Assembly: GCA_964648775.1 (NCBI GenBank)
Contig: CAZYNA010000003.1
Location: forward strand, 18,807 to 82,806
Reading direction: 5' to 3'
Source of the DNA: an uncultured Proteiniphilum sp.
Lineage (GTDB): Bacteria; Bacteroidota; Bacteroidia; Bacteroidales; Dysgonomonadaceae
Length of the DNA stretch: 64,000 bases
Of the stretch, positions 3,086 to 24,183 are shown piece after piece; the stretch's first letter is position 1; the number at the start of each line of letters is the position of its first letter. The notes beneath the pieces are model-generated. The model had not been told where the DNA came from. It saw only the letters and a list, made by a program, of their open reading frames with translations, and searched no databases. The position numbers were made by a program, and so were the translations under genes.

Positions 3086-3156
3086 TGTCCCATGGTGTAA
3101 TGGTAGCACATCTGATTTTGGTTCAGCCGGTTGAGGTTCGAGTCCTTGTGGGACAA
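3086..3156 (+). tRNA. tRNA-Gln (anticodon TTG)
   Basis: Manual cloverleaf. Acceptor TGTCCCA/TGGGACA. D arm GTGT-AATGGTA-GCAC. Anticodon stem TCTGA/TCAGC with one mismatch. Loop TTTTGGT with TTG at 3118-3120. T arm TGAGG-TTCGAGT-CCTTG. Discriminator A. No encoded CCA. Confidence 0.85.
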
Positions 3157-3171
3157 CTGAAAACAATTCTG

Positions 3172-3200
3172 AAACCCGTTCTTAGAGCGGGTTTTTCTTT
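3172..3200 (+). terminator. intrinsic terminator after tRNA-Gln
   Basis: AAACCCG (3172-3178) pairs with CGGGTTT (3188-3194), followed by a T-rich tail. Confidence 0.7.
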
Positions 3201-3491
3201 TCTACAAACGGTTTTACCTTTTTCCGCTTTATCCAACTTTATACATTTTTACTTAATTTATCGTATTTATTTCGTACCAATTATTGCTTTTGTGCGAAAA
3301 ATGGTACGAAAATATTAAGAATATAGAATTCTGGGCATTATCAATATGGGAAATTACCCATATGTAAACGACCTAACTAAACATTATATCATCATACCCT
3401 TAACTCAGTGTGGTAAGTATTAGTAATAGGTAATTTTATGGTCTTTTATTTTCAAATCGACTATTTAAGAAAAAAGTAAGATTGCCATTTT

Positions 3492-3881
3492 CTACAGTTC
3501 ATTAAGTTCATCGAAGTATCGATTAAACTCAGTAAATATTTCGTTTCTAAGTGGATTACATCTATAACAAATAATCGAAGAGTAAACATCCTCTGAGCAC
3601 CTGTTGTGTTTAATATAATCTCCTTGAGAATATTTATTATACCACCTTTCAAATAATATATCACGGTATTGATGCTTCTTGTCATAATTGTCGCACGTGA
3701 AAATTAATGCATCGTCATTTTTAGCGAAAAAATCCGAGATAATTTTAGATATAGTGATGGCAACACGTTGATCAAACACCTTCCTTGCACAGACTTTATC
3801 AAAGTTAAAAGAATAAACACGTAAAGATTCAAAGCCAGGTAACTCTATAAAATAAGCGATGTATCTACATCGCTTACAGTT
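3492..3881 (-). pseudogene. 5'-truncated small hypothetical gene (possibly DUF6169-like)
   Basis: The track ORF 3492..3779 starts at a GTG. The frame stays open 34 more codons upstream (…CRYIAYFIELPGFESLRVYSFNFDKVCARK-VFDQRV…) up to a TAA at 3882-3884, with no ATG in that stretch. The family guess is from memory only. Confidence 0.35.
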
Positions 3882-3917
3882 TTAAATCTATATGTGTTTA
3901 AATTATCTGCCGAATAA

Positions 3918-4071
3918 TTATATGGGCTTTGCAAATTTAATTCCTCGCTCATCTGCCAGTTTTTTTTAAATCACCACCGTTTCTAATACATTCGTTTATT
4001 GCCCGTTTATCCTCCAACACCTTATCTATGAAGTTGCGGGCATTTTTCCCTGTTCTTACTTCTGTTTTCAT
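3918..4071 (-). pseudogene. small ORF interrupted by a frameshift in an A8 homopolymer
   Basis: ATG at 4069-4071 gives MKTEVRTGKNARNFIDKVLEDKRAINECIRNGGDLKKTGR*, with the stop at 3949-3951. Removing one A from the A8 run (T8 on the plus strand, 3960-3967) gives ...GGDLKKLADERGIKFAKPI*, ending at 3918-3920. Confidence 0.35.
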
Positions 4072-4388
4072 TTGTTTTAATTTTATGGAGTATAACTACT
4101 TTGTATTGTTTAGACTAATTAATAACCCCAAAGCTACATATTTATAAATAAATAACAAAACAAGCCATATGTTTTGCATCATAATTAGTTCTTTATCACC
4201 AATATACAACCTTAAAACGTGTTACTTGCTACTTTTGTTTTAAAATTTCGGAAAAACATCAGACTGGTTTTTGAACAAGAATATTGTTTTATATGGTAAT
4301 AAATCATGAAACAATTGTTTTATTTATTCTTACCAATTGTTTTGATGTCTTTCCAAAAGGCAGATATAAATGATAGTATCGCAGGGAC

Positions 4389-4421
4389 AAAAAAATCCCC
4401 AGCTTATTATAGCCGGGGATT
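4389..4421 (-). terminator. intrinsic terminator after the TIM-barrel gene (end of the PUL transcript)
   Basis: The minus strand reads AATCCCCGGCTATAATAAGCTGGGGATT followed by T7. Confidence 0.75.
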
Positions 4422-4444
4422 ACAGTATAAAAATTAGTTCTATC

Positions 4445-5335
4445 TTATTTTGAATAGCTTTCTTTTACAAAATCAGCATTGTTCAAATAATCGTAACTTT
4501 CCTGAACTCCTTCAACAGGTGTTCCTGTATATCTTTCAACCTCAACTATCATGTATTTGGCTCCCGACTGACCTACATTGTTATAAATGTTTTCAAAATC
4601 AACTTCACCACTCTTGCCAAGTTCCATCTCATCTTTAATGTGAAGTAACTCAAAGCGGTTAGGATATTTGTTGAAGTATGCAACCGGATCATGTCCTCCT
4701 TGAACTACCCAGTAAACATCCATCTGGTAGAACACTTTTGAAGGATCAGTATTCTCAATCATGTAGTCATACATGATATTACCTTCAACTTCTTCAAATT
4801 CAAATGCGTGATTGTGGTAACCAAACTTAATTCCTGCAGCATTACACTTCTCACCAATTTCATTAAAGTAATCACAGTATGCCTGCAGATCAACCAATGT
4901 TTCTGGTTTTGGAATCCATGCCACAACAAGATACTTCATACCTGCTTCTTTATGAGCTTGTATTGCAGTATCCCACCATGCCCATGTTGCATCCCAATCA
5001 GTATCTGATGCTGGGTTAGCTAATGGTCTTCCTGCGTGAGAAGAAAGAACTTCCATTCCTGCGTCTTCAATAGTTTTTTTGAAGTCGGCCGGAGACATTC
5101 CGTAAAACTGTCCATCATTATAACCGGCAGCCTCAACTCCCGTATAGCCCATCTCAGCTACAGTAGCAATAGTTCCTGCATAGTCGCCCTGAATATCATC
5201 ACGAAGTGAATATAACTGCAAGTAAATATCTTTTGTAGCTTCAGCTTCAGCAGTCTGCTGTCCCTGGCCACATCCGGTAAAAATAAATAGGCAGCTTAAT
5301 AAAACTGCACTAAAAAAAATTGAATGTTTTTGCAT
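4445..5335 (-). CDS. xylose-isomerase-like TIM-barrel protein (sugar phosphate isomerase/epimerase family), lipoprotein
   Basis: 296 aa. Lipobox LFIFTGC. Motifs GYTGVEAAG and FGYHNHAFEF, plus a LHIKD-type metal ligand pattern typical of the AP_endonuc_2 fold. Confidence 0.8.
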   Translation of the reverse strand: MQKHSIFFSAVLLSCLFIFTGCGQGQQTAEAEATKDIYLQLYSLRDDIQGDYAGTIATVAEMGYTGVEAAGYNDGQFYGMSPADFKKTIEDAGMEVLSSHAGRPLANPASDTDWDATWAWWDTAIQAHKEAGMKYLVVAWIPKPETLVDLQAYCDYFNEIGEKCNAAGIKFGYHNHAFEFEEVEGNIMYDYMIENTDPSKVFYQMDVYWVVQGGHDPVAYFNKYPNRFELLHIKDEMELGKSGEVDFENIYNNVGQSGAKYMIVEVERYTGTPVEGVQESYDYLNNADFVKESYSK

Positions 5336-5405
5336 TGTACTTTTGTTTTAAAAAAAAGAATATTTCCACCGGAAGGCAGAAATATTCTTTTAAGATGTTA
5401 TTTTA

Positions 5406-6272
5406 TTAGTCTAAAATTTTAACTCTGATATTGCGATACCATACATCGTCACCATGATCCTGAAGGCCAATATAACCTTCTCTTTCAGGTCCGCCAACAT
5501 TGTTCAGAAGTTCAAAAGCAAGAGGCCATTTATCCTGACTAAACTTACTTTCCTGAAGCATATCTGTCCATTGCTGTGTCCATAAGTGGTATTCAAGAAC
5601 GTTCTCATCATTTTGTCCATGAACAACAGTACCTCTGTAAACCATAATTGAAGTAGTATTCCACTCATCAAAAGGGTTCTGATTTTGAGGAACTGCAGGT
5701 ATCATATCATACAATGAAGCAGACATTCTGTTATTGTCTTTACCCAATTTAGCATCGGGGTGATTAGCGTTGTCAAGAATCTGATATTCCGGTGAAGAAA
5801 TATAAATTGGCTCATATCTCTCGTTTCCGTCTCTATCAACAGTAGTTACTTCCTGAGCTAAATAAAATATTCCTGAGTTACCGCCTTTTGATACTTTCCA
5901 ATCCAACTTAAGCTCGAAATTTTTAAACTTGTGGCTAAAGATAATATCTCCACCATCTCCATCCTGAGCTTCACCACCACCTGAGCCGTTAAACTTAATT
6001 GCACCATCTTCAATAGTCCATTTACCAGGCACATAGTCTTTTCCATAACCACGCCATCCTGTAAAATCTTCACCATTAAAAATTACGATATAACCCTCAT
6101 CGTCTGTTGGAAATTCTGATAAATCAACCTGAGGATTTTCTACTACTGTATATTGAGGAGTATCAGTAGCAGCCTCTTCTGTTTCTGAATCTTGTGCTTT
6201 TTGTGATGCACCTCCGCAAGCTGTAAAAGTAGCAGCAGCTAAAATTGCAAGTGCGTAAAATAATTTCTTCAT
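5406..6272 (-). CDS. DUF1080 / 3-keto-disaccharide hydrolase family protein, lipoprotein
   Basis: 288 aa. Lipobox ATFTAC. Motifs GNSGIFY, EYQILDN and GYIGLQDHGDDVWYRNIRVK are characteristic of DUF1080. Confidence 0.8.
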   Translation of the reverse strand: MKKLFYALAILAAATFTACGGASQKAQDSETEEAATDTPQYTVVENPQVDLSEFPTDDEGYIVIFNGEDFTGWRGYGKDYVPGKWTIEDGAIKFNGSGGGEAQDGDGGDIIFSHKFKNFELKLDWKVSKGGNSGIFYLAQEVTTVDRDGNERYEPIYISSPEYQILDNANHPDAKLGKDNNRMSASLYDMIPAVPQNQNPFDEWNTTSIMVYRGTVVHGQNDENVLEYHLWTQQWTDMLQESKFSQDKWPLAFELLNNVGGPEREGYIGLQDHGDDVWYRNIRVKILD

Positions 6273-6375
6273 AACTTATTTTCCTTTTAATTAAACTGAT
6301 AATTTAGTTTTATTATTAAATAAAAGAAGGGAATAACAGATCAAACAATCTGATACTCCCTATCTTATGTTGAGA

Positions 6376-7845
6376 TTAAGGCATCTCCGGTAGTTTGAAA
6401 CCGTTCTTATAAGTATGCTTAATCATTTCTTTTGCATATTCCTGAGCATTTACAGGATCCGACCAAGTCTTATCGAATGTTGGGTGACCATCAGTAATTT
6501 TGAAGCCATCTTCAACAATTGTTCTGATAGTAGCATCATTAGGAATATTAGTAAATTCCATATTAGCACCATCCCAATGAAGTTCCTGGTTCAAGCTCTG
6601 TAATCTAACAGCAAGAACACCCATAACAACCATTTCGTTGAAAGGTCCTGCTTCTGAGAAAGGAGATGCAGTTTCAACACGGTTTTCAGGAGATTCTTTA
6701 CATGCACGTACCCAATCCATCTCGTGTGAAAGTGTAACTTCACGCTGAGTTTTTGGAGAATTAGGTTTACGACCCGATACTAACCATGGGTTAACGCCAT
6801 AGCAACCGCAGATAAGAGTATCTTTAGTTCCGTGGAAGATAACACCACCACCCTGATCGTTCAAGTTTTTACCTGCAGGTACTCCTTCAGGACGCATTGG
6901 CTGTAAGCCACCATCGTACCAGTAAACCTCAACTTCAGGCATAGCAACCTTTGGCAGGTTGTCGCGAGCAGGGAATACATATTTAACTTGCTGGGCAACA
7001 GGTGCACAGTCTGTTAATAACATTGTTGAAGAACCTTGTACTTTAGTTGGATATCCAAGATTCAAGCCTTTAAATACCGGATGCAGGATATGACAAGCCA
7101 TATCACCAAGAGCACCTGTACCAAAATCCCACCATCCACGCCAGTTCCATGGGTGATAAATTTCATTGAAAGGACGCTTGTTAGCAGGCCCGATAAAAAG
7201 ATCCCAATCCAATGTTTTTGGAATACGGTGAGTTTCTTTAGGAACATTTAATCCCTGTGGCCAAATAGGACGGTCTGTAAATGCTTCAACTTTTGTAACT
7301 TCACCAATCACGCCATCAGCAATCCAATCGATCACCTGACGAACTCCCGAACCTGATGATCCCTGGTTACCCATACTGGTTGCAATTTTATGTTTCTCGG
7401 CAAGTCTTGTCAACAAACGAGATTCATAAACACTATGTGTTAAAGGCTTCTGAACGTAAACGTGCTTGCCCATAGTCATAGCATCTGCTGCAATAATAGC
7501 GTGTGTATGGTCGGCTGTTGCAACTACAACACCATCTATTGAATTGCCTAACTCCTCATACATTTTTCTGTAATCGTAGTATTTCTTGGCATTGGGATAT
7601 TTCTTAAATACATTTTCGCTGTATCTCCAGTCAACATCACAAAGTCCGATGATATTTTCACTTTGTAACTGGTTAAGGTTTGCATTTCCCATTCCACCTA
7701 CTCCAACACCTACGATGTTAAGTTTATCGCTTGGGGCTTTATAGCCCATGCTTTTCCCTAGTACCGTAGAAGGTACGATAGTTAAACCGGCAGCAGCCAT
7801 AGCACCGGTTCCTAAAAATTTTCTTCTCGAAATGTTTGATGACAT
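6376..7845 (-). CDS. Gfo/Idh/MocA-family oxidoreductase with twin-arginine signal peptide
   Basis: 489 aa. TAT motif SRRKFLGTGAMAAAG. Rossmann motif NIVGVGVGGMG. Confidence 0.85.
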   Translation of the reverse strand: MSSNISRRKFLGTGAMAAAGLTIVPSTVLGKSMGYKAPSDKLNIVGVGVGGMGNANLNQLQSENIIGLCDVDWRYSENVFKKYPNAKKYYDYRKMYEELGNSIDGVVVATADHTHAIIAADAMTMGKHVYVQKPLTHSVYESRLLTRLAEKHKIATSMGNQGSSGSGVRQVIDWIADGVIGEVTKVEAFTDRPIWPQGLNVPKETHRIPKTLDWDLFIGPANKRPFNEIYHPWNWRGWWDFGTGALGDMACHILHPVFKGLNLGYPTKVQGSSTMLLTDCAPVAQQVKYVFPARDNLPKVAMPEVEVYWYDGGLQPMRPEGVPAGKNLNDQGGGVIFHGTKDTLICGCYGVNPWLVSGRKPNSPKTQREVTLSHEMDWVRACKESPENRVETASPFSEAGPFNEMVVMGVLAVRLQSLNQELHWDGANMEFTNIPNDATIRTIVEDGFKITDGHPTFDKTWSDPVNAQEYAKEMIKHTYKNGFKLPEMP

Positions 7846-8075
7846 AAGTACTTTTTTTTTGGTTTAACTTAAGTTAATTATTTATTATTTTACTTGTTGT
7901 ATATCATTCGTTTATGCTTCATTTATTATAGCACAATTTAGAATAATTCTGAAATTTGATTCTTAATAATCCTAATATAGATAAATTACTTCCGTAAAAG
8001 TAAGATAAATATAAATGAAAATGAAATTTTATTGAATGAATAATTTCAATTTATTACAAATATTATGTTTTATCA

Positions 8076-8106
8076 CAAAAAACTCCGGGTTAACCGGAGT
8101 TTTTTG
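8076..8106 (-). terminator. symmetric hairpin terminator between the SusD-family gene and the oxidoreductase gene
   Basis: AAAAAACTCCGG-GTTAA-CCGGAGTTTTTT. It is flanked by an A-run and a T-run, so it could act on either strand. Confidence 0.65.
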
Positions 8107-8126
8107 TGAAATATGTTATTGATAGA

Positions 8127-9761
8127 TTACTGATCGTAGCCCGGATTTTGAACCAGATTAGGATTAGCAGCTATCTGAGTATGAGGAATAGGATACAGTT
8201 CTTTGTTAGGATCGTTACTTGGTGTATGATCCCACCATGTTCCTGTAACATACTTACCAAAACGTATAAGATCAGTACGTCTTTTTCCTTCAAAGATAAA
8301 CTCTCTTCCTCTCTCAGCAAGCATCTCATCCATTGTTAATGTTGAAGTTGTATATCTTGCTGCAGGCCAATCTTCTTCTGTAAACGCACGACTTCTCGAT
8401 GCATTAACCAGGTCTACTGCTTCCTGTGTTGCAACGCCACCATTTTTACGCATTAATGCTTCAGCTTTGTTAAAATAAATTTCTGTCAAGCGATATATCA
8501 TATAGTGGTTTTCATGGAAGTTGTCATCCAATATAGTTCCAGCTACATATTTATTGAAGCGGGCTCCACTATTTTCTTCACCTTGATCCATACCGCCTTC
8601 ACTTGTAAAATCACCTTCACTCTCTCTTCTGATCGAGTTTACATAAACAAAAGGTTCACCATTGTACTCTTCTGTTCCAAGAATAGGTTCTCCTGTTTCG
8701 ATATCGTACTGAGGCCCAAATAAGAACCACTCTTCTTTGCGAAGGTCATTATCATCATATGCATCGAATGCAGAAGGGATTACAACAAATGCGTTCCATC
8801 CGGAAAAGTCAACTCCAAGAGCTCTACTCATATTTGAGTAACCAAAGTAGAAACCTCCCCAGCCAAAAGTGAATCCACCTTGTTTACTGAAAGCAAACTG
8901 AAATAAAGCTTCATCAGCCTCTTGATTAGTATTGGAGAATGTTGAAGTGATATCTTCGGCAAGTTTAGGTGTTCCATTTATACCTCCGGCATTTCCATTG
9001 ATAATCATATCACATGCTGCAATAGCCTCATCATACATTGGTGTACCAATATGATACTCTGCATTCAAATAAAGCTCCGATAGCATAGCATAACCTGCTG
9101 CTTTTGAAACTCTACCTACAAGCTCTTTAGAATATGGCAACAATTGTGGGACATATGTCTCGAGCTCAGTTTTAATAAAATCAAACACCTCTGCTTTTGA
9201 TTGTGAAGGTGGATTCTGTGGCTCACCTACTGTTGTAATAATAGGAACATTACCCCACAGTTCCATAATTTTCATATAATGGAAAGCTCTAAGAACATAT
9301 AGCTCGGCAAGAATAGCAGTCATTTCTGTATCAGAAATGCCAATCGACTGGTTGTCCACATCCTGCAAGTCCATAATAGCAGAGTTAACGTAACCAAGAC
9401 CTGTCCACATTAAAACCCATGCTGTACGCATACGGCTTTCGTTAGCAGTCCAAGTATGATAATGCTGTCTAAAGTGGTCACCACCGTCATATCCGTGTCT
9501 TCCTTTTTGTGGCCATGCAACCTGATCAGATGATAATTCAGAGTGATAATAATAACCATTCTGACCGGTTGGAGCAAGCCATGCCTGCATATGTGTAAAT
9601 GGTCTCAATGCAGCCTGCAAAACTTCAATTTTATTATTGTAGAAGTTCGATTTGTTTAATTCACTATAAACGTTCTCACTTAAATCGGTACAGCTATTAA
9701 GTGTGAAAACCAATACCGCTGTGAAAAACAGACCTATAATTTTATGTATATTTTTTTTCAT
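8127..9761 (-). CDS. SusD/RagB-family outer-membrane lipoprotein
   Basis: 544 aa. Lipobox LNSCTD. Lies directly downstream of a SusC-family gene. Confidence 0.9.
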   Translation of the reverse strand: MKKNIHKIIGLFFTAVLVFTLNSCTDLSENVYSELNKSNFYNNKIEVLQAALRPFTHMQAWLAPTGQNGYYYHSELSSDQVAWPQKGRHGYDGGDHFRQHYHTWTANESRMRTAWVLMWTGLGYVNSAIMDLQDVDNQSIGISDTEMTAILAELYVLRAFHYMKIMELWGNVPIITTVGEPQNPPSQSKAEVFDFIKTELETYVPQLLPYSKELVGRVSKAAGYAMLSELYLNAEYHIGTPMYDEAIAACDMIINGNAGGINGTPKLAEDITSTFSNTNQEADEALFQFAFSKQGGFTFGWGGFYFGYSNMSRALGVDFSGWNAFVVIPSAFDAYDDNDLRKEEWFLFGPQYDIETGEPILGTEEYNGEPFVYVNSIRRESEGDFTSEGGMDQGEENSGARFNKYVAGTILDDNFHENHYMIYRLTEIYFNKAEALMRKNGGVATQEAVDLVNASRSRAFTEEDWPAARYTTSTLTMDEMLAERGREFIFEGKRRTDLIRFGKYVTGTWWDHTPSNDPNKELYPIPHTQIAANPNLVQNPGYDQ

Positions 9762-9798
9762 ATATTTTTTATTTTATTCTGTATGGTATTCATACTAA

Positions 9799-12762
9799 TT
9801 AAAAACTAACATTAACTCCAATTGACCATGACTGAGTGCGTGGGTAGTAATCTCTCTTATCAACACCTGCCTCAAATCCGGTATCCTGTAGTTCAGGATC
9901 TACACCGCTATAACCGGTTAAAGTAAGAATATTTCTTCCGGTAACATAAAATCTCAAGTTTGAAATATAATCAGTTTTTAAAGGAACATTGTACCCAAGT
10001 GTTATATTATCAAGTTTAACAAAACCTCCTTTTTCAAGATAGTAATCTGAGTATTGTGGGTCATCATCTAAATCGCCATGCTCTGTTAAAGCAGATGTTA
10101 ACATGTTGTTAGGCAACCATTTTTGATTTCCAAAATAGAGTTCTTTTAAGTTAAGTATATCGAAACCAAATTTACCTCTGAAAAGAAGTGTCAGATCAAA
10201 ATTCTTATACTGGAAACGATTGTTTAATGACGCCTGTACTTTTGGAACTCCATTTCCAATAATCTTAAGGTCGTCTTCAGAAATTTCAGTAGATCTTACG
10301 GCTTCTCCTTCTGCATTGTAAAATAACCATTTTCCATCTTCTGTAAATCCGGCAAACTCTTTACCGTAAAAGTTACCAACTCTACCACCTTCCTCAAGAC
10401 GGAATGCATTACCTAAGTTACCGGGTGAAGGCAGACCGTAGAATGATAGCCAGTTAGCCTTAAATACATCGCTCGAAAGTTTAGTCAATTCGTTTGTTTG
10501 ATAACTTGTTGCCAAATCTATATCCCATCTGAAATCCTGGTTTTGGATCGCTGCAGCAGATAACTGAATCTCAAGACCGGTATTTCTGATAGATCCTACG
10601 TTTGTATAAATAAAGTCTCTAACGTATGGAGGTTGCTGTGCATTATAATTATACAATAAGTCTTTTGTATTTCTATTATATACATCGATAGAACCACTTA
10701 ATCTTCTGTTAAGTAATGAGAAGTCAACCCCAACGTTAAGTTCATGCTTCTGCTCCCAACGAAGATCGGGGTTCGGGTTTCTTGCAGCTCCGTAAGTTTG
10801 GTAATAAACACCATCTTGTGGATAAACACCTCCAGTACTTAGTGTTACAAGAGACTGGTAGTTAGGTATTCCCTGGTTACCGGTTACTCCATAACCAACT
10901 CTTAGTTTTAACTCATCAATTACATCTGCATCATACATAAAGCCTTCTTCAGAAATAGTCCAACCTGCCGAAATTGCAGGGAATGTACCCCATTTGTGAT
11001 TTGCACCAAATCTGGAAGATCCTTCGTGACGAACAATTGCCTGTAGGTAATATCTGTGATCAAAAGAGTAGTTTACACGACCAAAGAAGGCAACAAGTGT
11101 ATTATCATTCTTGCTGCTACCCATTCCCGGGCGAGGTAATCTTGTGTTTTGAATTGCACTACCTGCACCTAAATTCCAATCAAGAAAAGCATCAGTTGTA
11201 AAACCGTTGTTGTTAACATTAAATCTCTCTTCAGTATCATACTGATAACTGTATCCTAAAAGTCCGGTTAATGTGTGAACATCATTAAACGTTCTTTTGT
11301 AGTCTGTTGTAGCTTCAAATGTTTTACTCCACGATAAGAAGTTTTCTTTTGAAGCATAACCCATACCCTGATAAGAAGTTCCGGGTCTGTTATCCCAGTC
11401 TGTTGAAGCGCGGTAATATCTGTCGTTGTATGTATTACGAAGATAAGAACCAAATCCTGAAACAGACCAGTGATCGGTAAGTTGTACCTGCAAACGTAAA
11501 TCTGCAGATGTTGTTTGCTGATCTCTTTCTGAGATTCTATTAGCTAAGCGTGACAACGGATTGTAGTTGTTAAACGCTGTAGTTTCATAGAATGTACCAT
11601 CTTCATTATATAGAGGAGCTGTTGGGTTTCTTTGAATCGCTTGCTCAAAGTCACCTGATCCTCCACCAAGCATATTTGCTTTATTAAAGTTTGTTGCAAG
11701 GTTGAATGACATAGTTAATCTATCGTTCAAACCTTTTTGGTTAACATTCACACGTCCACCAAATTGCTCACGAGCATTTTCTTTTGCAATTCCTTCAAGA
11801 CTGCTGTAGAACACAGAAGCTCTGTAGTTAGTATTTTCTGTTCCACCTGATGCTGAAAAATTGTGATAATGGCTTAAGTTGTTATTATTTATCAGCTCAT
11901 CAAATAGATTAGTATCAGCACCAAAGTCCTGATTAGCATTTACAATTCCTTGAGAAATAAGATCTCTCCATCCTGCTGCATCAAATACTTTAGGACGCTC
12001 ACTTAGTATCTCACGCTGTGCATAAGATGAATAGTTAAACTGTGGTGCACCTGCACGCCCTTTCTTTGTGGTAATAAGAATTACACCGGCATTACCACGT
12101 GTACCATAAATAGCAGCTGCTGATCCGTCTTTCAAAATATTGAACGACTCTATATCATCCGGTTGCAAAAGATCAAGGCTACCTCCGGGTATACCATCAA
12201 TTACAATTAACGGAGAACGAGTTCCCGAAAGTGAAGCAATACCACGAAGCTGAATATCCATACCTGAGTTAGGGTTACTGCCATTAACTCTTGTCATATT
12301 CAATCCGGCAACTTTACCCTGAATAAGGTCCATTGCGTTACGGGTACCTCCCTGATTAAAGTCGGCAGCAGTAATAGTCTCAATAGACGATGTAACCTCT
12401 CTTCTGTCCATCGTACCATATCCAACAACTACAACCTCTTCAAGCATTTCAGAGTCTTCAGTTAGGCTAATATTAATAATAGTTCTTCCATTTACTTGCA
12501 CATTCTGAGATTGCATTCCTACATACGAAACCTCCAGTACACCACTCGACGGTACATTATTTAATGTGTATTCTCCATCAATATTGGTTACTGTACCGTT
12601 CGTTGTTCCTTGAACAAGGAGGGTAACCCCAATCAGTGGTTCACCGTTAACATCAGAAACAATACCTCTTACGGTAGTGCCCTGAGCAAACAACCCCAGT
12701 GATAGAATCCACACAAAAGCAGACAATATCACTCTCATTTGATTTGTTTTTACTTTTTTCAT
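9799..12762 (-). CDS. SusC/RagA-family TonB-dependent transporter
   Basis: 987 aa. Carboxypeptidase-regulatory-like N-terminus (GIVSDVNGEPLIGVTLLVQGT). Plug motif AAIYGTRGNAGVILITTKKG. C-terminal ...SIGVNVSF. I did not notice an STN/anti-sigma signalling extension. Confidence 0.9.
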   Translation of the reverse strand: MKKVKTNQMRVILSAFVWILSLGLFAQGTTVRGIVSDVNGEPLIGVTLLVQGTTNGTVTNIDGEYTLNNVPSSGVLEVSYVGMQSQNVQVNGRTIINISLTEDSEMLEEVVVVGYGTMDRREVTSSIETITAADFNQGGTRNAMDLIQGKVAGLNMTRVNGSNPNSGMDIQLRGIASLSGTRSPLIVIDGIPGGSLDLLQPDDIESFNILKDGSAAAIYGTRGNAGVILITTKKGRAGAPQFNYSSYAQREILSERPKVFDAAGWRDLISQGIVNANQDFGADTNLFDELINNNNLSHYHNFSASGGTENTNYRASVFYSSLEGIAKENAREQFGGRVNVNQKGLNDRLTMSFNLATNFNKANMLGGGSGDFEQAIQRNPTAPLYNEDGTFYETTAFNNYNPLSRLANRISERDQQTTSADLRLQVQLTDHWSVSGFGSYLRNTYNDRYYRASTDWDNRPGTSYQGMGYASKENFLSWSKTFEATTDYKRTFNDVHTLTGLLGYSYQYDTEERFNVNNNGFTTDAFLDWNLGAGSAIQNTRLPRPGMGSSKNDNTLVAFFGRVNYSFDHRYYLQAIVRHEGSSRFGANHKWGTFPAISAGWTISEEGFMYDADVIDELKLRVGYGVTGNQGIPNYQSLVTLSTGGVYPQDGVYYQTYGAARNPNPDLRWEQKHELNVGVDFSLLNRRLSGSIDVYNRNTKDLLYNYNAQQPPYVRDFIYTNVGSIRNTGLEIQLSAAAIQNQDFRWDIDLATSYQTNELTKLSSDVFKANWLSFYGLPSPGNLGNAFRLEEGGRVGNFYGKEFAGFTEDGKWLFYNAEGEAVRSTEISEDDLKIIGNGVPKVQASLNNRFQYKNFDLTLLFRGKFGFDILNLKELYFGNQKWLPNNMLTSALTEHGDLDDDPQYSDYYLEKGGFVKLDNITLGYNVPLKTDYISNLRFYVTGRNILTLTGYSGVDPELQDTGFEAGVDKRDYYPRTQSWSIGVNVSF

Positions 12763-13174
12763 TCTTCAATTTTTAAGTTAATCGTTTAAATAGTTGTTAA
12801 GCACATTATCATGTTGTGATATAAGTTTTATTATAATGATAAATTAATTTAAGTAAGATATCATATTTGTTTCATCGTTAATAAATGTCACAAAAAAACA
12901 CGTTATTTTATTAAATTAAACGTATTAGCAATATTTAAATTTCACATTTTATGGTACATAATAGCATATAAAATTCAAAGATAGTTGTTGTAAGTTAAAT
13001 TACAAACTTTTTATATCAAAATCCTATTTTTTACTACAATTTTAACAATTAAATTAATACACTTAATTGCATTTAAACGTTCTATCACACATAACCCAAA
13101 ACAATCAAATTTAAAATCCACAAATATTTTTGTTTCTCTTTATAAATGAAGTAACTTTATGTCGTTAACATCAA

Positions 13175-14860
13175 ATGTTTGAAATGTTGATAACAAATAG
13201 GACTATGAACCAGAACAGTTTTTTAGCAATAATTGAACAGAGTTTCCGAAACAATTGGGAAAGACCTGCACTAACGGAAATAGACAGCAGAACTCTTTTA
13301 TATAAAGATTTTGCAATGGAAATAGATAAATTACATGATCTTTTTGATAAGGCAGGTGTTAAAAGAGGTGATAAAATATCTATATGCGGTAAGAACTCAG
13401 CCAATTGGGCTATATCATTCTTCTCAATACTTTCATATGGCGCAGTTGCGGTCAGCATTCTTCACGAGTTCGATAATAGTAGTGTTCAATTTATTGTTGA
13501 TCACTCAGATTCAATTATGTTTTTTGCAGATAAGAAAATTTGGGAGAAAGTAAACGAAACAACTGTTCCAAAAATAACGTCTGTAATTTCACTTGATGAT
13601 TTTTCTCTTCTTAAATCTGAATCGGAGAGCCTTAAAGAGTTTGCTGATGGCTCAGAAGTTTATTTTGAAGAAAAATACAAAAACGGGTTCTTTGTTAACG
13701 ATCTTACTTTCAGAACAGATAAACCGGAAGAGCTTGCCGTAATAAACTATACTTCAGGAACAACAAGTAGTCCTAAAGGTGTTATGATTCCCTACCGGAG
13801 CTTATGGTCGAATACCAAGTATGCCAACGAGAATGTAGGTTTTATGAATCCCGGTGATGGCATTTTATGCATGTTGCCAATGGCGCATACATACGGACTG
13901 GCTTTCGAAATTCTCAACTCAATTTCACTGGGTTGCAATGTCTATTTTCTTGATAAGTCGCCATCCCCAAAGGTTTTGCTCGATGCTTTCAAAGTAGTTA
14001 AACCCAAGCTGGTTTTGGCTGTACCGCTTATTCTTGAAAAAATTGTTACTAAGAATGTTTTCCCAAAGCTTAAGCAAGGCTCTGCCAAATATTTATCTAA
14101 AATTCCATTACTTAACTCTGTTGTTCACAAAAAGGTGCGCGACACGCTTATTGAGTTCTTCGGAGGAAATTTGGTTGAAGTGGTAATTGGTGGTGCTGCA
14201 CTTAATTCAGATGTGGAGAACTTCCTCAAAAAGATAAAATTTCCGTTTACTGTTGGATACGGAATGACTGAAACCGGACCGCTTATTTCTTATGCATACT
14301 GGACTGAGTACAAGAAGCGTTCGTCGGGTAAAGTGGTTGACAGGATGCGTGCTAAAATAGATTCTGAAGATGCCGAAAATGTTGTGGGCGAAATTCTTGT
14401 GAAAGGTTCAAACCTGATGTTAGGATATTATAAGAATGAGGAGGCTACAAAAGAAACATTTACCGACAATGGCTGGTTTAAAACTGGTGATCTGGGTACA
14501 TTGGATAGTGATAATTTCGTCTTCATTAAGGGAAGAAACAAGAATTTGTTGCTTGGACCATCCGGACAAAATATTTATCCTGAAGATATTGAAGAGCGAC
14601 TTAATTCATCTGATTATGTAAGTGAATCGCTTGCAATTGGTGAGGATAAAAAAATTGTTGCGCTTATATTTCCGGACTTCGATACGCTTAAACAAGAAAA
14701 AATTCCGGAAAGCGAAGTTGATTCACTGTTCCGGAAAATTATTGATGATATAAATTCAAATCTACCTACTTATAGCCAAATTGCTTCTTTCAGAATTCAA
14801 AATAAAGATTTTGAGAAAACACCAAAAAGAAGCATTAAACGCTTTAAATATCAGAAGTAG
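13175..14860 (+). CDS. AMP-dependent synthetase/ligase (long-chain acyl-CoA synthetase-like)
   Basis: 561 aa. AMP-binding motifs YTSGTTSSPKGV and GYGMTETG. The exact start is uncertain (several Met codons in the first 12). Confidence 0.8.
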   Translation: MFEMLITNRTMNQNSFLAIIEQSFRNNWERPALTEIDSRTLLYKDFAMEIDKLHDLFDKAGVKRGDKISICGKNSANWAISFFSILSYGAVAVSILHEFDNSSVQFIVDHSDSIMFFADKKIWEKVNETTVPKITSVISLDDFSLLKSESESLKEFADGSEVYFEEKYKNGFFVNDLTFRTDKPEELAVINYTSGTTSSPKGVMIPYRSLWSNTKYANENVGFMNPGDGILCMLPMAHTYGLAFEILNSISLGCNVYFLDKSPSPKVLLDAFKVVKPKLVLAVPLILEKIVTKNVFPKLKQGSAKYLSKIPLLNSVVHKKVRDTLIEFFGGNLVEVVIGGAALNSDVENFLKKIKFPFTVGYGMTETGPLISYAYWTEYKKRSSGKVVDRMRAKIDSEDAENVVGEILVKGSNLMLGYYKNEEATKETFTDNGWFKTGDLGTLDSDNFVFIKGRNKNLLLGPSGQNIYPEDIEERLNSSDYVSESLAIGEDKKIVALIFPDFDTLKQEKIPESEVDSLFRKIIDDINSNLPTYSQIASFRIQNKDFEKTPKRSIKRFKYQK

Positions 14861-18654: not shown

Positions 18655-20889
18655 ATGAAAAAAATTGCAATTATAGGTAATTACCCTCCGCGAAAATGTG
18701 GTATAGCTACGTTTACGAACGACCTGAATGAAGGGTTTAAGGTTAATAATGCCAACACAGCAGTTATAGCTATGAATGATGGCTTAAATAGCTATAACTA
18801 CTCGTCTGATGTTGTTTTTGAAATTGAACAAAATGATATACTGTCATATATTAATGCTGCTGAGTATCTGCATACCAACAAGTTTGATGCAGTGATTTTA
18901 CAGCATGAGTTCGGAATATTTGGCGGCAGAGACGGAAAACATATATTGCAACTGCTTAAACGGCTTCGTATGCCGGTTATCACCACTTTACATACAATTC
19001 TTGATAATCCGTCGGAGCATCAAAGACGTGTGGTAAATGAGCTGGCGCAATTGTCGCATCGGTTAGTTAGCATATCAGTGAAGGGAGTGGAACTGCTGAC
19101 TTCAATATATAATGTTCCTAAGGATAAATGTACTCATATTCATCATGGTGTACATGAAATTGGGGAACCGAATATTGATGGATTGAAAAAGAAGCTGGGG
19201 GTTGAAAACAAAAAAGTGATACTTACATTCGGACTTCTTTCAAAAAACAAATCTATTGAGGTGGTAATTAATGCATTGCCCGAAGTTGTTAAAAAACATA
19301 AAGATATTGTATATATTGTGCTGGGGGCAACACACCCGCATGTGCTGAAGCATGAGGGTGAGGATTACAGACATTCACTTATAAGGCTGGCAACTAAACT
19401 TGGTCTTGATAAAAATGTGATTTTTATTAACCGTTTTGTTAGTAATGAGGAGCTTTTTAACTACCTAAAGATGTGTGATATATATGTAATTCCTTATTTA
19501 GGTGAGAAACAAATCTCATCGGGTACATTGATATATACAATGGGGGCGGCAAAACCAATTATATCTACTCCATTTTGGTATGCAAAGGAAATGCTGGCAG
19601 ATAACAGGGGATTACTCTTCGATTTTAAAGACTCAAAACAATTGAGTGAAAAAATAAACAGCTTGCTTGATGATACCCAAAAAAGTGAATCTATTGCAAT
19701 GAATGCATTTGAATTAGCAAAGGATTGTTATTGGCCAAAAATTAGTAGTCAATATAATAGTATGGTTACAAAATTGGTTGAAGAAGAGGGAGTTATTAAA
19801 ACTGAGTATGAGCTGGCGGATGAGAGTGAATTGAAGTTTACATTGCCTCCGATAAGTTTAAGTCACCTGCAACTTATGACGGATAATACCGGACTGCTTC
19901 AACATGCCAGGTATAGTATTCCTGACAGGGCTCATGGTTACTGCAGCGACGATAATGCGCGTGCATTGCTATTGTCGGTTATGCTTCAGAATGATGTGCA
20001 GGATGTGGATGAACTTAAAAGATTAACAAGCATTTATCTGTCTTATCTTGATTTTGCTTTTAATCAGAAGAATAGTAAGTTCAGGAATTTTATGAGCTAT
20101 TCGAGAGAGTGGCTCGATAATTCCGGTACTGAGGATAGTAATGGCAGAACTCTATGGGCTTTGGGTTATGCAGCTTCTCATACAAATAACAGTAATTTGT
20201 ATCTTCACTCAAACGGACTATTCAGAAGGGGATTAGAGGCAGCACGAGATATTTCGCACCCTCGCTCATTGGCTTATACCATACTCGGACTGGTTTATCA
20301 TGCAAAAGCAGAAGGTGTGCCTGAAGTGATTGAATTGCTTAAGAATAAGTCGGCCCAATTATTCGATATTTATAGTAAAACTATTGATGACAACTGGATA
20401 TGGCACGACAATAAGGTAACTTATGGTAATAGCAGAATTCCTCAGGCTCTGATTTTTGCGGGTTGGTATTTAAAAGATGATATAATGGCTAAAAGGGGAT
20501 TAAAGATTCTGAACTGGCTAATTGACAAGCAGTTTACGGATGGCATATTCTCTCCAATTGGAAATGAGGGCTGGCTGACACCCGAAGGGAAAGCTAAGTT
20601 TGATCAGCAGCCACTTGAAGCTAATGGTATGATTGATGCATGTTTGCAAGCCGAAGAATACAGCAATGACAAGAAATATGGCTCTTATGCTATGAAGGCT
20701 TTTTCGTGGTTTACTGGTGATAATATAATTGGTGAAACTATTTATGACTTTTCTACAGGAGGGTGCCGCGACGGATTAATGACGAGTGGAGTAAATATGA
20801 ATCAGGGAGCTGAGTCTACTCTTTCGTGGCTTATGTCGTTGCTGAATATTTCACTATATCTGCGCGAAACCAAAAATGTAAGTATATGA
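18655..20889 (+). CDS. GT4-family glycosyltransferase fused to a ~360-aa C-terminal domain of unknown function
   Basis: 744 aa with no signal peptide. The N-terminal half has the Glycos_transf_1 pattern (…LTFGLLSKNKSIEVVI…IPYLGEKQISSGTLIYTMGAAKPIISTP). The C-terminal half (LQLMTDNTGLLQHARYSIPDRAHGYCSDDNARALL…) looks helical-repeat-like. Confidence 0.7.
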   Translation: MKKIAIIGNYPPRKCGIATFTNDLNEGFKVNNANTAVIAMNDGLNSYNYSSDVVFEIEQNDILSYINAAEYLHTNKFDAVILQHEFGIFGGRDGKHILQLLKRLRMPVITTLHTILDNPSEHQRRVVNELAQLSHRLVSISVKGVELLTSIYNVPKDKCTHIHHGVHEIGEPNIDGLKKKLGVENKKVILTFGLLSKNKSIEVVINALPEVVKKHKDIVYIVLGATHPHVLKHEGEDYRHSLIRLATKLGLDKNVIFINRFVSNEELFNYLKMCDIYVIPYLGEKQISSGTLIYTMGAAKPIISTPFWYAKEMLADNRGLLFDFKDSKQLSEKINSLLDDTQKSESIAMNAFELAKDCYWPKISSQYNSMVTKLVEEEGVIKTEYELADESELKFTLPPISLSHLQLMTDNTGLLQHARYSIPDRAHGYCSDDNARALLLSVMLQNDVQDVDELKRLTSIYLSYLDFAFNQKNSKFRNFMSYSREWLDNSGTEDSNGRTLWALGYAASHTNNSNLYLHSNGLFRRGLEAARDISHPRSLAYTILGLVYHAKAEGVPEVIELLKNKSAQLFDIYSKTIDDNWIWHDNKVTYGNSRIPQALIFAGWYLKDDIMAKRGLKILNWLIDKQFTDGIFSPIGNEGWLTPEGKAKFDQQPLEANGMIDACLQAEEYSNDKKYGSYAMKAFSWFTGDNIIGETIYDFSTGGCRDGLMTSGVNMNQGAESTLSWLMSLLNISLYLRETKNVSI

Positions 20890-22337
20890 TAAAAGTAAAA
20901 CGACAATCAATTAAAATTCTTCCCTCATCAATGAGAACGCTGGTGAGACCATTTGTTCCGGGAAGTGAATCTCAGGTTGAACATATTCTTTTCAGAATAT
21001 TCTCAACTCCTAAGAGCGACAGAAAAAAAATTGTAGAGAGATTGCATAAGCGACTTGAAATGCCTCATGATACATCTAAGACCATATTTATGAGGCACTT
21101 CGAAAATATTAAGCCTCGAATTCCTTCAAACATGGAGCTTTCTGATACAGACAAACAGTTTATTGGTGCCTGTTTCACACAACAGTATGCACTGGAATCT
21201 ACTGCTTTGTTTAACCCATCTATTGTTCCACACCCAATTCAGGACAAAGAGGATGTTACCCGTTTTATAATCAGTTTAAGAGCCATTGGTGAAGGGCATA
21301 TTTCTTCGATAACCTTTATGGAAGGGGAGATTGATAAGAATTTTAATATTAAGGTAGGTAAAAACTCACCGGTTATTTATGAGCCTGAAAGAACAGATCA
21401 TATTTATGAAAAAAAGGTTATCATTAAAAAAGCAAATGAACATAAACTTCTTTCGGATTTAAATAAACCTGTGTTTAATCTGTTGACCGAGAGTTTTAAT
21501 TTGGATGAGCTGAATCTTGCAATCAATAAAGTTATTAATGAAAACATTGATAATGATAGAGATGAGTTGATCAGTTCGGTGGAAAGTATTAGAATGCTTG
21601 CACTATCAAATTTTTCTTTACAGTTTAATACTGATGATATCACAGAAAGGGCAATTTACCCCGCATCGCCCAGCCAGAGCAACGGATTAGAAGACGCACG
21701 CTTTGTTAAGTTCAGGCATGACGACGGCAGTGATACGTATTATGCTACTTTTACAGCTTATGACGGACATAAGATTATGCCTGAAATGCTTGAGACAAAG
21801 GACTTCAAAAAGTTTAAAGTTTCAACTCTAAGCGGTGATGCTGCAAAGAACAAAGGTATGGCACTTTTTCCACGAAAGGTGAATGGAAAGTATATGATGC
21901 TGGGCCGACAGGATAATGAGTCGCTTTATATTATGCAGTCTGACAATCTCTACTTCTGGCATGATTACCAGCCTCTTATTAAGCCTACGCATGATTGGGA
22001 AATGATGCAGATTGGAAACGGAGGTTCTCCAATTGAAATTGAGGAGGGATGGTTAGTTATTACACATGGTGTGGGCCCGGTGCGTACCTACTCTCTTGGA
22101 GCGGCTTTATTGGATAAAGAGAATCCTCAAAAAGTGATTGGAAGGTTGGACAAACCTTTACTGACTCCTGCAAAGAATGAGAGTTCGGGCTATGTGCCTA
22201 ACGTAATCTATACTTGTGGAGCAATGGTTATTGACAGAACTTTGGTTCTGCCCTACGCTATTTCTGATGTGGTGACCAAGTTTGCAACTGTTAGCGTGGA
22301 TGAGATTATTAATCATATGATAAAATTTAAGTTTTAA
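20886..22337 (+). CDS. GH130-family (DUF377, PH1107-related glycosidase/phosphorylase) protein with an N-terminal extension
   Basis: The preferred start MIKVKRQ at 20886 overlaps the upstream stop (ATGA). The C-terminal ~300 aa carry GLEDARFV, YYATFTAYDG, GMALFPRKVNGKYMMLGR and GGSPIEIEEGWLVITHGVG, typical of GH130. There is no signal peptide. Confidence 0.75.
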   Translation: MIKVKRQSIKILPSSMRTLVRPFVPGSESQVEHILFRIFSTPKSDRKKIVERLHKRLEMPHDTSKTIFMRHFENIKPRIPSNMELSDTDKQFIGACFTQQYALESTALFNPSIVPHPIQDKEDVTRFIISLRAIGEGHISSITFMEGEIDKNFNIKVGKNSPVIYEPERTDHIYEKKVIIKKANEHKLLSDLNKPVFNLLTESFNLDELNLAINKVINENIDNDRDELISSVESIRMLALSNFSLQFNTDDITERAIYPASPSQSNGLEDARFVKFRHDDGSDTYYATFTAYDGHKIMPEMLETKDFKKFKVSTLSGDAAKNKGMALFPRKVNGKYMMLGRQDNESLYIMQSDNLYFWHDYQPLIKPTHDWEMMQIGNGGSPIEIEEGWLVITHGVGPVRTYSLGAALLDKENPQKVIGRLDKPLLTPAKNESSGYVPNVIYTCGAMVIDRTLVLPYAISDVVTKFATVSVDEIINHMIKFKF

Positions 22338-23360
22338 ATGAAAATTGCAATGTTATCTCCTATTGCATGGCGAACACCGCCAATGCATTATGGACCGTGG
22401 GAACTGGTTACATCTCTGTTAACAGAGGAATTGGTGAAAAAAGGTGTTGATGTTACTTTGTTTGCTACAGAAAATTCTATTACAGAAGCGAAGCTCAGAT
22501 CTGTTGCGCCAAAAGGATATGAAGAAGATAAGGATATTGATGCTAAAGTATATGAGTCCCTGCATATCTCAGAGTGTTTCGAACAATCGGGGGAATTTGA
22601 TATAATTCACAACCAGTTTGATTTTTTACCTCTCACATACTCCAGATTAATTGACACACCTTTAGTTACTACTATTCACGGCTTTTCTTCTTCGAAAATA
22701 TTGCCGGTATATAAAAAGTATAATCTCAATACTCATTATATATCAATAAGTGACGCCGACAGATCGTCTGAATTAGATTATCTTGCAACTGTGTATCATG
22801 GAATTGATTTGAGTCAGTTTACTTTTAACCCTAACCCAAAGGGCGATTATATTTTATACTTTGGCAGAGTACATCATGATAAAGGAACAAAAGAAGCGGT
22901 TGAGATTGCAAGGGCTCTTGAAATGCGATTAGTAATTGCCGGAATAATACAGGATCAGGGCTATTTTGATGAATATGTGAAGCCCTTTCTAAAAGAGGGA
23001 AAGGTGGAATATGTAGGTAATGTTGGTCCGAAAGACCGTGACAAGCTGCTGGGAAATGCTAAACTTTTGCTTCACCCAATAAACTTTAGTGAGCCATTCG
23101 GACTCTCTATTGTTGAGTCAATGGCTTGTGGTACTCCTGTTGTAGCCTTTAACAAAGGGAGTATGCCTGAATTAATTACCGATGGAGTGAATGGATTTTT
23201 AACTACAAACGCCGAAGAGGCAATTGAAAAAATAAAAAATATTGATAAGATTGAAAGAAGTGACTGCCGGGATGTGGTAGAACAAAGATTCACTAAAGAG
23301 ATTATGGCAGAAAACTATATAGATGTTTACAAAAGAATTTTGGACCGAAGAATTAAGTAG
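22338..23360 (+). CDS. GT4-family glycosyltransferase
   Basis: 340 aa. The ATG directly follows the TAA of the GH130 gene. It has the EPFGLSIVESMACGTPVVA motif (E-x7-E type). Confidence 0.8.
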   Translation: MKIAMLSPIAWRTPPMHYGPWELVTSLLTEELVKKGVDVTLFATENSITEAKLRSVAPKGYEEDKDIDAKVYESLHISECFEQSGEFDIIHNQFDFLPLTYSRLIDTPLVTTIHGFSSSKILPVYKKYNLNTHYISISDADRSSELDYLATVYHGIDLSQFTFNPNPKGDYILYFGRVHHDKGTKEAVEIARALEMRLVIAGIIQDQGYFDEYVKPFLKEGKVEYVGNVGPKDRDKLLGNAKLLLHPINFSEPFGLSIVESMACGTPVVAFNKGSMPELITDGVNGFLTTNAEEAIEKIKNIDKIERSDCRDVVEQRFTKEIMAENYIDVYKRILDRRIK

Positions 23361-23459: not shown

Positions 23460-24152
23460 CTATAAAGAGAAACGTTTGCCTTGCTTTAAGAATGCATTAT
23501 ATTTTTTAGTGTTGAATTTATAATAAAATGCACCTCTTTTGGAGCTCTCTTTTTCTTTTTCATCCAGTTTATCAAGTATATCCATTGAAGCAAGTCTTTT
23601 ACGGAAATTCCTTTTATCTAAAGGCATTTGATAAATTGCTTCATACAGATCCTGTAGAGCCGGCATAGTAAACTTGTCATTAAAGAAGTGAAATGCAATT
23701 GGTTGAAAAGAAACTTTATACTGAAGAAGTTTTTTTGCATCCTCTACCATCTCGTTATGGTCGAATACAAGTTTAGGGAGATGCTTTATATTTATCCATT
23801 TGGCATCAAATTTCTTGGCAAGCGATGTGTTGAATTTTTCTGTCTGAACTAATGCATAAAAAGCAACGGATACCACCCTGCCTCCTGCATCTCGTTCTAT
23901 TTCTCCGTATGCACCAACCTGTTCCATGTATACATCTTTTTGCTGAGTATAACGGTAAAGTACTTTTGCAGCTGCCTGATTCAAGCTTTCGCCGGCTTCC
24001 ATAAATCCACCCATTAGCGACCACTCATTTTTCATTGGTTCTACCGGTCTTCTTGTAAGTAATACATGTAATTCCTTATCATGAAAACCAAATATAATAC
24101 AATCTACAGCTACAAGAAATAGATCATTATTATTGTAATATGTCTCTAACAT
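23460..24152 (-). CDS. Nudix-domain protein with C-terminal winged-helix (NrtR-like transcriptional regulator)
   Basis: 230 aa. Nudix fold region WSLMGGFMEAGESLNQAAAKVL. The C-terminal ~80 aa resemble the NrtR wHTH (…LQDLYEAIYQMPLDKRNFRKRL…). Confidence 0.65.
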   Translation of the reverse strand: MLETYYNNNDLFLVAVDCIIFGFHDKELHVLLTRRPVEPMKNEWSLMGGFMEAGESLNQAAAKVLYRYTQQKDVYMEQVGAYGEIERDAGGRVVSVAFYALVQTEKFNTSLAKKFDAKWINIKHLPKLVFDHNEMVEDAKKLLQYKVSFQPIAFHFFNDKFTMPALQDLYEAIYQMPLDKRNFRKRLASMDILDKLDEKEKESSKRGAFYYKFNTKKYNAFLKQGKRFSL

Positions 24153-24183
24153 AGTATATAAGGTAAAGTGTTTGATTAAATAA

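Follow-up and report, generated by a model that had tools for sequence, protein, structure and literature searches.

A conserved SusC/SusD pair beside 3-keto-glycoside pathway genes in an uncultured Proteiniphilum sp. and the recurrence of its orthologues next to glycoside-3-oxidation genes

Gene content of the locus and identity of the enzymes

We analysed a 64,000-nucleotide stretch of contig CAZYNA010000003.1 (positions 18,807 to 82,806 of the forward strand; assembly GCA_964648775.1) from an uncultured Proteiniphilum sp. of the Bacteroidota, hereafter the window, in which a SusC/SusD outer-membrane pair (SusCD) stands next to three predicted genes of the 3-keto-glycoside route of oxidative glycoside cleavage (the triad). 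Five co-oriented open reading frames (ORFs) occupy the minus strand between 4445 and 12762, in the order SusC, SusD, oxidoreductase, DUF1080 protein and TIM-barrel protein.

The SusC-family TonB-dependent transporter (9799-12762, minus strand, 987 aa) scored 755 bits against TIGR04056 (cutoff 368), carries the TIGR04057 signature and is made up of CarboxypepD_reg, Plug and barrel domains; no STN domain was found in it by Pfam. A gap of 37 bp separates its gene from the adjacent, co-oriented gene for a SusD-family surface lipoprotein (8127-9761, minus strand, 544 aa), which matched SusD_RagB (PF07980, 100 bits) and SusD-like_3 (PF14322). The Gfo/Idh/MocA oxidoreductase (6376-7845, minus strand, 489 aa) is an orthologue of the glycoside 3-dehydrogenase BT2158/AL3. 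Its N-terminus (MSSNISRRKFLGTGAMAAAGLTIVPSTVLG; MSSNISRRKFLGTG...) contains the twin-arginine translocation (TAT) motif SRRKFLG followed by a hydrophobic stretch, and the Pfam TAT_signal model gave a weak match (17 bits, cutoff 22.7). The two remaining proteins are lipoproteins, namely the DUF1080 protein (Pfam 3keto-disac_hyd, PF06439, E = 2.9e-46; 5406-6272, minus strand, 288 aa; lipobox FTAC), orthologous to BT2157/AL2, and the xylose-isomerase-like TIM-barrel protein (AP_endonuc_2, PF01261; 4445-5335, minus strand, 296 aa; lipobox FTGC), orthologous to BT2156/AL1. Read against the surface-export signals of Bacteroidota, the residues following the lipid-anchor cysteine (GGASQ and GQGQQ in the two enzyme lipoproteins, neither with an acidic residue, and TDLSE in SusD) fit enzymes that face the periplasm and a SusD that is exposed at the surface.

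The oxidoreductase reached 905.8 bits against the NCBIfam equivalog NF058561 (BT_2158_fam, glycoside 3-dehydrogenase; cutoff 750) over residues 6-489 and scored far under the cutoffs of the inositol, levoglucosan and BT_2159 models. It is 74.7% identical to PDB 8TDF, while the DUF1080 and TIM-barrel proteins are 77.6% and 52.6% identical to PDB 8TDA and 8TCD, respectively. Every residue named in the structural and mechanistic study of the pathway (Nasseri et al., bioRxiv 10.1101/2024.03.25.586180) is kept across the three enzymes: the six residues of the AL3 sugar/NAD (nicotinamide adenine dinucleotide) site, Q161, R192, W195, D248, H252 and Y349, occur under the same numbering; the eight BT2 channel residues E103, N134, E164, Q166, Y190, K245, Q273 and H275 are all present in the DUF1080 protein, shifted by 2 positions; and H174, H176, D206, W209, H232, E267 and H100 of the TIM barrel align with BT1 H182, H184, D214, W217, H240, E275 and H107, the published set of metal-binding (His/Asp/His), substrate and catalytic (Glu) residues. 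The order oxidoreductase-DUF1080-TIM barrel is also kept in most of 80 genome loci whose oxidoreductase is 69-91% identical to that of the window, the best matches being from Proteiniphilum. Because of the equivalog score, the identity to solved structures and the kept active sites, the triad is assigned to the 3-keto-glycoside (non-Koshland) route, and its members are ordinary orthologues of the enzymes of Liou, Liu and Nasseri rather than novel ones. Their predicted activities are those of the orthologues. In that work, BT3/AL3 oxidises C3 and later reduces the 3-keto-sugar, the TIM barrel BT1/AL1 is a 3-keto-beta-glycoside 1,2-lyase, the DUF1080 protein BT2/AL2 is both a 3-keto-alpha-glycoside 1,2-lyase and a 2-hydroxy-3-keto-glycal hydratase, and AL4/BT4 is dispensable in vitro (bioRxiv 10.1101/2024.03.25.586180).

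No glycoside hydrolase (GH), polysaccharide lyase (PL) or carbohydrate esterase (CE) domain was detected by Pfam in the five proteins or their immediate flanks, and the DUF1080 protein showed no GH16 catalytic motif. Genes for a hybrid two-component system (HTCS), a SusR-type regulator, an extracytoplasmic function (ECF) sigma/anti-sigma pair or a DUF6377 protein were found neither adjacent to the locus nor, by Pfam, in any window ORF of 120 aa or longer. A tblastn search of the window with the AL4-like and AL5-like proteins of another locus (L039; comparison loci are given by our own numbers) returned no homologue of the BT2159/AL4 cytoplasmic oxidoreductase or of an AL5-like regulator, and no further oxidoreductase or TIM-barrel gene was found in the window. 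The locus thus holds three of the four pathway enzymes; the BT2159-type reductase and the regulator are absent from the window.

A preliminary description of this DNA, made from its letters, had named the five co-oriented genes and their families, the lack of canonical GH, PL or CE domains and of an adjacent HTCS, SusR or ECF/anti-sigma gene, and a SusC without an STN extension, all of which the Pfam and NCBIfam searches bore out. It had also pointed to a likeness to the BT2156-BT2160 pathway and proposed a comparison of gene order with such loci, and here too the equivalog score, the solved homologues, the kept residues and the shared enzyme order agree with it. Its account of the triad as the 3-keto-glycoside route stands for three enzymes; the fourth, BT2159/AL4, is not in the window.

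Compared with Bacteroides thetaiotaomicron BT2156-BT2160 and Alistipes AL1-AL5 (Liou 2020; Liu 2021, PMC8121099; bioRxiv 10.1101/2024.03.25.586180), the window has three orthologous periplasmic enzymes in the same order, with export signals of the same kinds, conserved active sites and the same predicted chemistry (oxidation, elimination, hydration and reduction). Those clusters, however, include the BT2159/AL4 oxidoreductase and a regulator (SusR-like BT2160 or DUF6377 AL5), whereas in the window a SusC/SusD pair takes the upstream position in their place; in addition, the TIM-barrel protein has a lipoprotein signal in the window and a reported plain secretion signal in AL1. Canonical Sus-like polysaccharide utilisation loci (PULs) and minimal PULs, such as BT3567-3569 (laminaribiose) and the two-gene PUL of vancomycin susceptibility BT1439-1440 (bioRxiv 10.1101/573055), resemble the window in having susC/susD beside periplasmic sugar-processing enzymes and a hairpin after susD. 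The locus differs from them in lacking GH, PL and CE domains and a cognate regulator, in having redox and lyase enzymes as its degradative arm, and in the apparent division into separate transcription units. Judged by its gene content, the locus is neither a canonical PUL nor a complete BT2156-BT2160 cluster.

Insertion of the SusCD pair and the two putative transcription units

The flanks of the locus are those of its nearest relatives, minus SusCD. Three loci with oxidoreductases 86-90% identical to that of the window (L001, L006 and L010) have CarB, an opposite-strand AMP-binding gene, a spacer of about 350 bp and the triad, with no SusCD; the tyrosyl-tRNA synthetase (TyrRS) gene follows the triad in L010, and the contigs of L001 and L006 are too short to show it. 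A metagenome contig of about 79% DNA identity (L087) has the same arrangement as the window, with SusCD inside the spacer, and in the alignment both ends of the old spacer are retained around SusCD in the window and in L087. The upstream junction falls between SusC and the divergently oriented AMP-binding gene, in the intergenic region 12763-13174, where alignment with the relatives showed that a block beside the AMP-binding gene (ATAAAGTTAC...AAACAAA) is common to the window and the SusCD-less relatives, and that the remainder of the region is common to L087 only. Since the relatives have the same flanks without SusCD and both spacer ends persist, we read SusCD as a two-gene cassette that was inserted into an old intergenic region upstream of the triad.

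The same SusCD (75-80% identical) is found elsewhere in Proteiniphilum-like genomes, after DUF1015 and AsnC genes in four loci (L082, L083, L090 and L109) and with different surroundings again in L088; the two genes have moved together. The SusC orthologue of L087 (6999-9963) is split into two overlapping ORFs of 260 and 734 aa, a frameshift or an assembly error, and the window SusC is intact, its 987 aa equalling the length of the Proteiniphilum saccharofermentans copy. A 24-nt inverted repeat (79% complementary; 8100-8123 and 12874-12897) brackets the cassette, one arm abutting the hairpin that follows SusD and the other standing some 110 nt before SusC begins. As a cassette boundary it was rejected, being poorly kept in L087 and probably a chance occurrence in AT-rich DNA.

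The symmetric hairpin that the preliminary description had placed between the SusCD and enzyme genes was recovered by the terminator scan at 8073-8109 (minus strand) as an intrinsic-terminator-like structure closing the SusCD unit, with 16 perfect base pairs, an A-run before and a U-run after. It folds at -24.6 kcal/mol (z = -8.0), and none of 200 shuffled sequences folded as well; hairpins of differing sequence occupy the same place after SusD in L087, L083 and L084 (P. saccharofermentans, Parapedobacter). A second terminator-like hairpin (4394-4421, minus strand; 11-bp stem followed by TTTTTTT, -19.3 kcal/mol, z = -3.9) ends the enzyme operon.

Between the first hairpin and the oxidoreductase gene lies a promoter-like block (7994-8030, minus strand), TTTC-N20-TACTTTTA within an invariant TTTATCTTACTTTTAC, which is unchanged in the window, L087, L001, L006 and L010, the rest of the spacer being about 59% conserved. 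The Bacteroides promoter consensus has -33 and -7 elements, which the block resembles, and it may therefore be the promoter of the triad. Four loci without SusCD there (L001, L002, L006 and L010) have exact copies of the 16-mer of this block, 143-160 nt 5' of the oxidoreductase start codon. A shared operator for SusC and the triad was considered and rejected, the 16-mer having one exact copy in the window, with no exact second copy and near-matches at chance level. Alignment of the SusC upstream regions revealed no conserved block common to the window or L087 and the other Proteiniphilum-like loci; therefore the cassette brought no recognisable common promoter. An Rfam scan of 4000-13400 (E <= 1) and of the whole window (gathering thresholds) returned a tRNA-Gln only, and thus no riboswitch or leader in the 5' region of about 140 nt of the oxidoreductase gene.

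Because SusCD ends in a terminator hairpin and the conserved promoter-like block has stayed with the triad, we infer two transcription units, between which read-through is possible. The module had been described as wired directly to the SusC/SusD pair. The adjacency is plain; direct wiring overstates the case for a self-contained cassette with its own terminator, set before a retained ancestral promoter-like region at a site where relatives have no cassette.

Neighbours of the SusCD orthogroup and the case for coupling

The best 120 database matches to the window SusD all reach at least 70% identity along the whole protein and cover Bacteroidales, Marinilabiliales, Sphingobacteriales and Flavobacteriales (Proteiniphilum, Thermophagus, Marinilabilia, Parapedobacter, Albibacterium, Arenibacter, Sinomicrobium and Galbibacter), a degree of conservation that is unusually high for a SusD. 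The neighbours of SusCD were compared in 26 other loci, or 23 after near-duplicates were collapsed (SusC 62-89% and SusD 69-88% identical to the window), and it is on these 23 loci that our claim of recurrence rests.

In 11 of the 23 loci, same-strand genes for a BT2158-superfamily TAT oxidoreductase, a DUF1080 protein or both lie no more than 600 bp from SusCD. BT_2158_fam was the best model for these oxidoreductases, with about 490 bits in a clade of 42% identity and 880 bits in L093. When a flavin adenine dinucleotide (FAD)-type system in Galbibacter is counted, 12 of the 23 adjoin glycoside-3-oxidation genes, in at least five architectures across Bacteroidales, Sphingobacteriales and Flavobacteriales. 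The Parapedobacter loci have SusD and SusC proteins 77% and 68% identical to those of the window and a neighbouring oxidoreductase only 42% identical; L092, L094 and L095 have an additional convergent pair of a TAT oxidoreductase and a TAT TIM-barrel protein. In L100 the oxidoreductase and DUF1080 genes lie upstream, with a larger DUF1080-domain protein and then a cytochrome c-domain protein downstream. The predicted genes of L093 (ECF sigma factor, FecR anti-sigma factor, STN-SusC, SusD, oxidoreductase, DUF1080 and GH43) mark it as a regulated PUL. A conserved 239-aa ORF without a Pfam match (MQTLNANWFIEVPIDFEHKQYQLLAYLQQ...) lies about 400-600 bp upstream of SusC in L084, L089, L092, L094, L095 and L110, all Parapedobacter-like loci, and could be a regulator or an accessory protein.

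The Galbibacter locus (L111, 5039-14591; Galbibacter sp. EGI 63066) contains the orthologous SusCD, then GH92, and after it a GMC oxidoreductase with a Gluconate_2-dh3 small subunit, which make up an FAD-type glycoside 3-dehydrogenase unrelated to the BT2158 type. A classical alpha-mannosidase and an FAD-type glycoside 3-dehydrogenase thus share one apparent operon. In Arenibacter (L085) the neighbours are a DUF1080 protein and a ThuA/GSDH/cytochrome c fusion protein. These two orthologues join the SusCD of the window to the FAD/cytochrome-type systems (Caulobacter LacABC and Agrobacterium/Sinorhizobium ThuAB, clustered with DUF1080 and IolE-like genes; PMC8121099), which resemble the window in periplasmic oxidation at C3 followed by DUF1080 and TIM-barrel steps. 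The window itself, in contrast, has an NAD-bound Gfo/Idh/MocA enzyme and no GMC, ThuA or cytochrome component.

Alpha-mannosidases adjoin orthologous SusCD in four to five loci. The orthologue stands among GH38, GH92 and GH43 in Marinilabilia and among GH38 and GH125 in Thermophagus, and a GH125/GH92 PUL lies directly downstream of it in P. saccharofermentans. Viewed from the enzyme side, one uncultured Bacteroidales locus (L013, 3365-9674) has, before the triad, two GH92 genes, one full and one cut short at 410 aa, a C-terminal barrel fragment of SusC and an intact SusD with 33% identity to that of the window; it is either a decayed or a misassembled alpha-mannoside PUL abutting a 3-keto operon.

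With moderate confidence, we favour the reading that SusCD and the triad are two adjacent transcription units whose products work together. SusC/SusD would capture a small glycoside or oligosaccharide at the cell surface for TonB-dependent import to the periplasm, where the TAT-exported oxidoreductase, with tightly bound NAD, would oxidise the C3 hydroxyl of the non-reducing-end sugar. The TIM-barrel lyase would then eliminate the aglycone from 3-keto-beta-glycosides and the DUF1080 protein from 3-keto-alpha-glycosides. The resulting 2-hydroxy-3-keto-glycal would be hydrated to a 3-keto-sugar by the DUF1080 protein, and reduction of the latter to the sugar by the oxidoreductase would regenerate its own NAD. 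Functional coupling is argued most strongly by the recurrence of SusCD beside two non-homologous enzymes of the same reaction. To judge by the gene neighbours, the SusCD ligand is most likely gluco- or manno-configured and possibly consists of alpha-mannosides, a reasonable guess because of the alpha-mannosidase neighbours, the GH92 of L013 and the discovery of the Alistipes cluster as an alpha-thiomannosidase (bioRxiv 10.1101/2024.03.25.586180).

A broader proposal, which we put forward tentatively and would not yet expect to hold, is that the SusCD orthogroup could be dedicated to admitting a single conserved class of small glycosides of gluco or manno configuration (plausibly alpha-manno-oligosaccharides) through the outer membrane, and could be paired interchangeably with GH92/GH38/GH125, with the NAD-dependent BT2158-type pathway or with an FAD-type glycoside 3-dehydrogenase. 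If so, the oxidative pathway would be an alternative cargo module of a PUL, and the SusD ligand would reveal its natural substrate.

Several observations weigh against coupling in the window, and most of them favour the principal alternative, which is that the neighbours are coincidental: SusCD would be an autonomous two-gene minimal PUL whose cargo, such as alpha-manno-oligosaccharides, is processed by GH92/GH38/GH125 enzymes encoded elsewhere, and would have landed upstream of a 3-keto-glycoside operon that is unrelated to it and expressed independently. The strong SusCD terminator and the conserved block before the triad separate the two units. The closest relatives run the triad with no SusCD at this site, and for B. 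thetaiotaomicron, which also uses the pathway, no SusCD dedicated to it has been described (PMC8121099). Proteiniphilum-like genomes carry the cassette in three or more different contexts, and in L082, L083, L088, L090 and L109 it has no pathway genes adjacent. Orthologues elsewhere adjoin alpha-mannosidases, as in Marinilabilia and Thermophagus, or nothing informative (L107, L101 and L088), about one third of the orthologous loci being without an informative neighbour. Moreover, of the 78 BT2158-orthologue loci with sufficient upstream sequence, L013 alone has SusCD directly upstream, non-orthologous and partly decayed. Coincidence, however, would have to account for the presence of glycoside-3-oxidation genes, from two unrelated enzyme families and in several architectures, next to SusCD in 12 of 23 loci, where a rough expectation is below 1% if about 10 of 4000 genes per genome are of such kinds, and for an arrangement kept between the window and L087 at only about 79% DNA identity. 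We therefore regard coincidence as unlikely, though as a contender of some weight.

It is improbable that the window SusCD imports a non-carbohydrate or atypical ligand (a peptide, glycopeptide or phospho-inositol compound), as ButCD, RagAB and PusCD do, its conservation reflecting a housekeeping nutrient. Such non-glycan SusCD systems are documented (PMC11467351; bioRxiv 10.64898/2026.09.03.749221), and both the unusual conservation of SusD and the many copies that stand alone as two-gene units would suit one. All informative neighbours are, however, carbohydrate-active (BT2158-type oxidoreductases, DUF1080, GH92, GH38, GH125, GH43 and GMC oxidoreductase), and the closest solved SusC in a PDB sequence search, 8AA4 (E = 2e-121), transports a glycan, with ButC (8YPU/8YPT) and RagA more distant. 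Identification of the window pair as ButCD, RagAB or PusCD was rejected, these being distant matches only. Inositol or free-sugar interconversion by an IolG/IolE-like triad that cleaves no glycosidic bond is very improbable, since the matches to the myo-inositol 2-dehydrogenase (TIGR04380) and inosose dehydratase (TIGR04379) models that suggest it are weak (51 bits against a cutoff of 355 and 53 against 290) beside an equivalog score well over its cutoff, the enzymes are 53-78% identical to characterised ones with all catalytic residues kept, and the three proteins carry export signals whereas inositol catabolism is cytoplasmic.

The novelty implied by the preliminary description does not extend to the enzyme module, which is characterised and has a curated model. 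What appears to be new, and undescribed in the literature searched, is the recurrent link of one conserved SusCD orthogroup to glycoside-3-oxidation genes, and the comparative data make a functional link likely. Searches for work linking DUF1080 or 3-keto enzymes with SusC, SusD or PULs brought up only the papers of Liu et al., which make no such link; SusC, the outer membrane or a transporter is not mentioned for the AL and BT clusters in bioRxiv 10.1101/2024.03.25.586180, nor is the oxidative pathway in a 2026 review of glycoside transporters. The pathway is a recent one, and the work surveyed here leaves its natural substrates open and is silent on their route into the periplasm. A conserved SusCD beside two unrelated kinds of glycoside 3-dehydrogenase offers a testable way to both the natural substrate and the outer-membrane entry; it also raises the question of whether, in a PUL, the oxidative pathway can take over the degradative role of glycoside hydrolases, and is a caution for PUL predictors that score loci by their content of carbohydrate-active enzymes alone. 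If the adjacency is coincidental, the locus is one more orthologue of a known operon.

The remainder of the window

The rest of the window encodes housekeeping functions (TyrRS, CarB, an AMP-binding ligase, Clp proteins, RecQ, Dxs, Trk, ProRS, his genes and a galactose operon). A tRNA-Gln(ttg) gene (3086-3157) lies directly downstream of the TyrRS gene, and the 1.2-kb gap between it and the triad terminator (3158-4393) contains only a 95-aa DUF6169 ORF (3492-3779, minus strand). L087 has a 290-aa DUF805 gene at the same spot, so this tRNA-adjacent position varies between species.

Three genes follow one another on the plus strand at 18655-23360, encoding a 744-aa GT4/GT1-domain protein, a 503-aa protein whose C-terminal half is GH130 and a 340-aa GT4 protein; the first two ORFs overlap. 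GH130 is a beta-mannoside phosphorylase family, and its predicted place between two glycosyltransferases suggests mannoside synthesis or remodelling. The galactose cluster on the minus strand (23460-28041) comprises a NUDIX/NrtR-AraR-type regulator, galactokinase, an MFS transporter and aldose 1-epimerase, and appears to be unrelated to SusCD and the triad.

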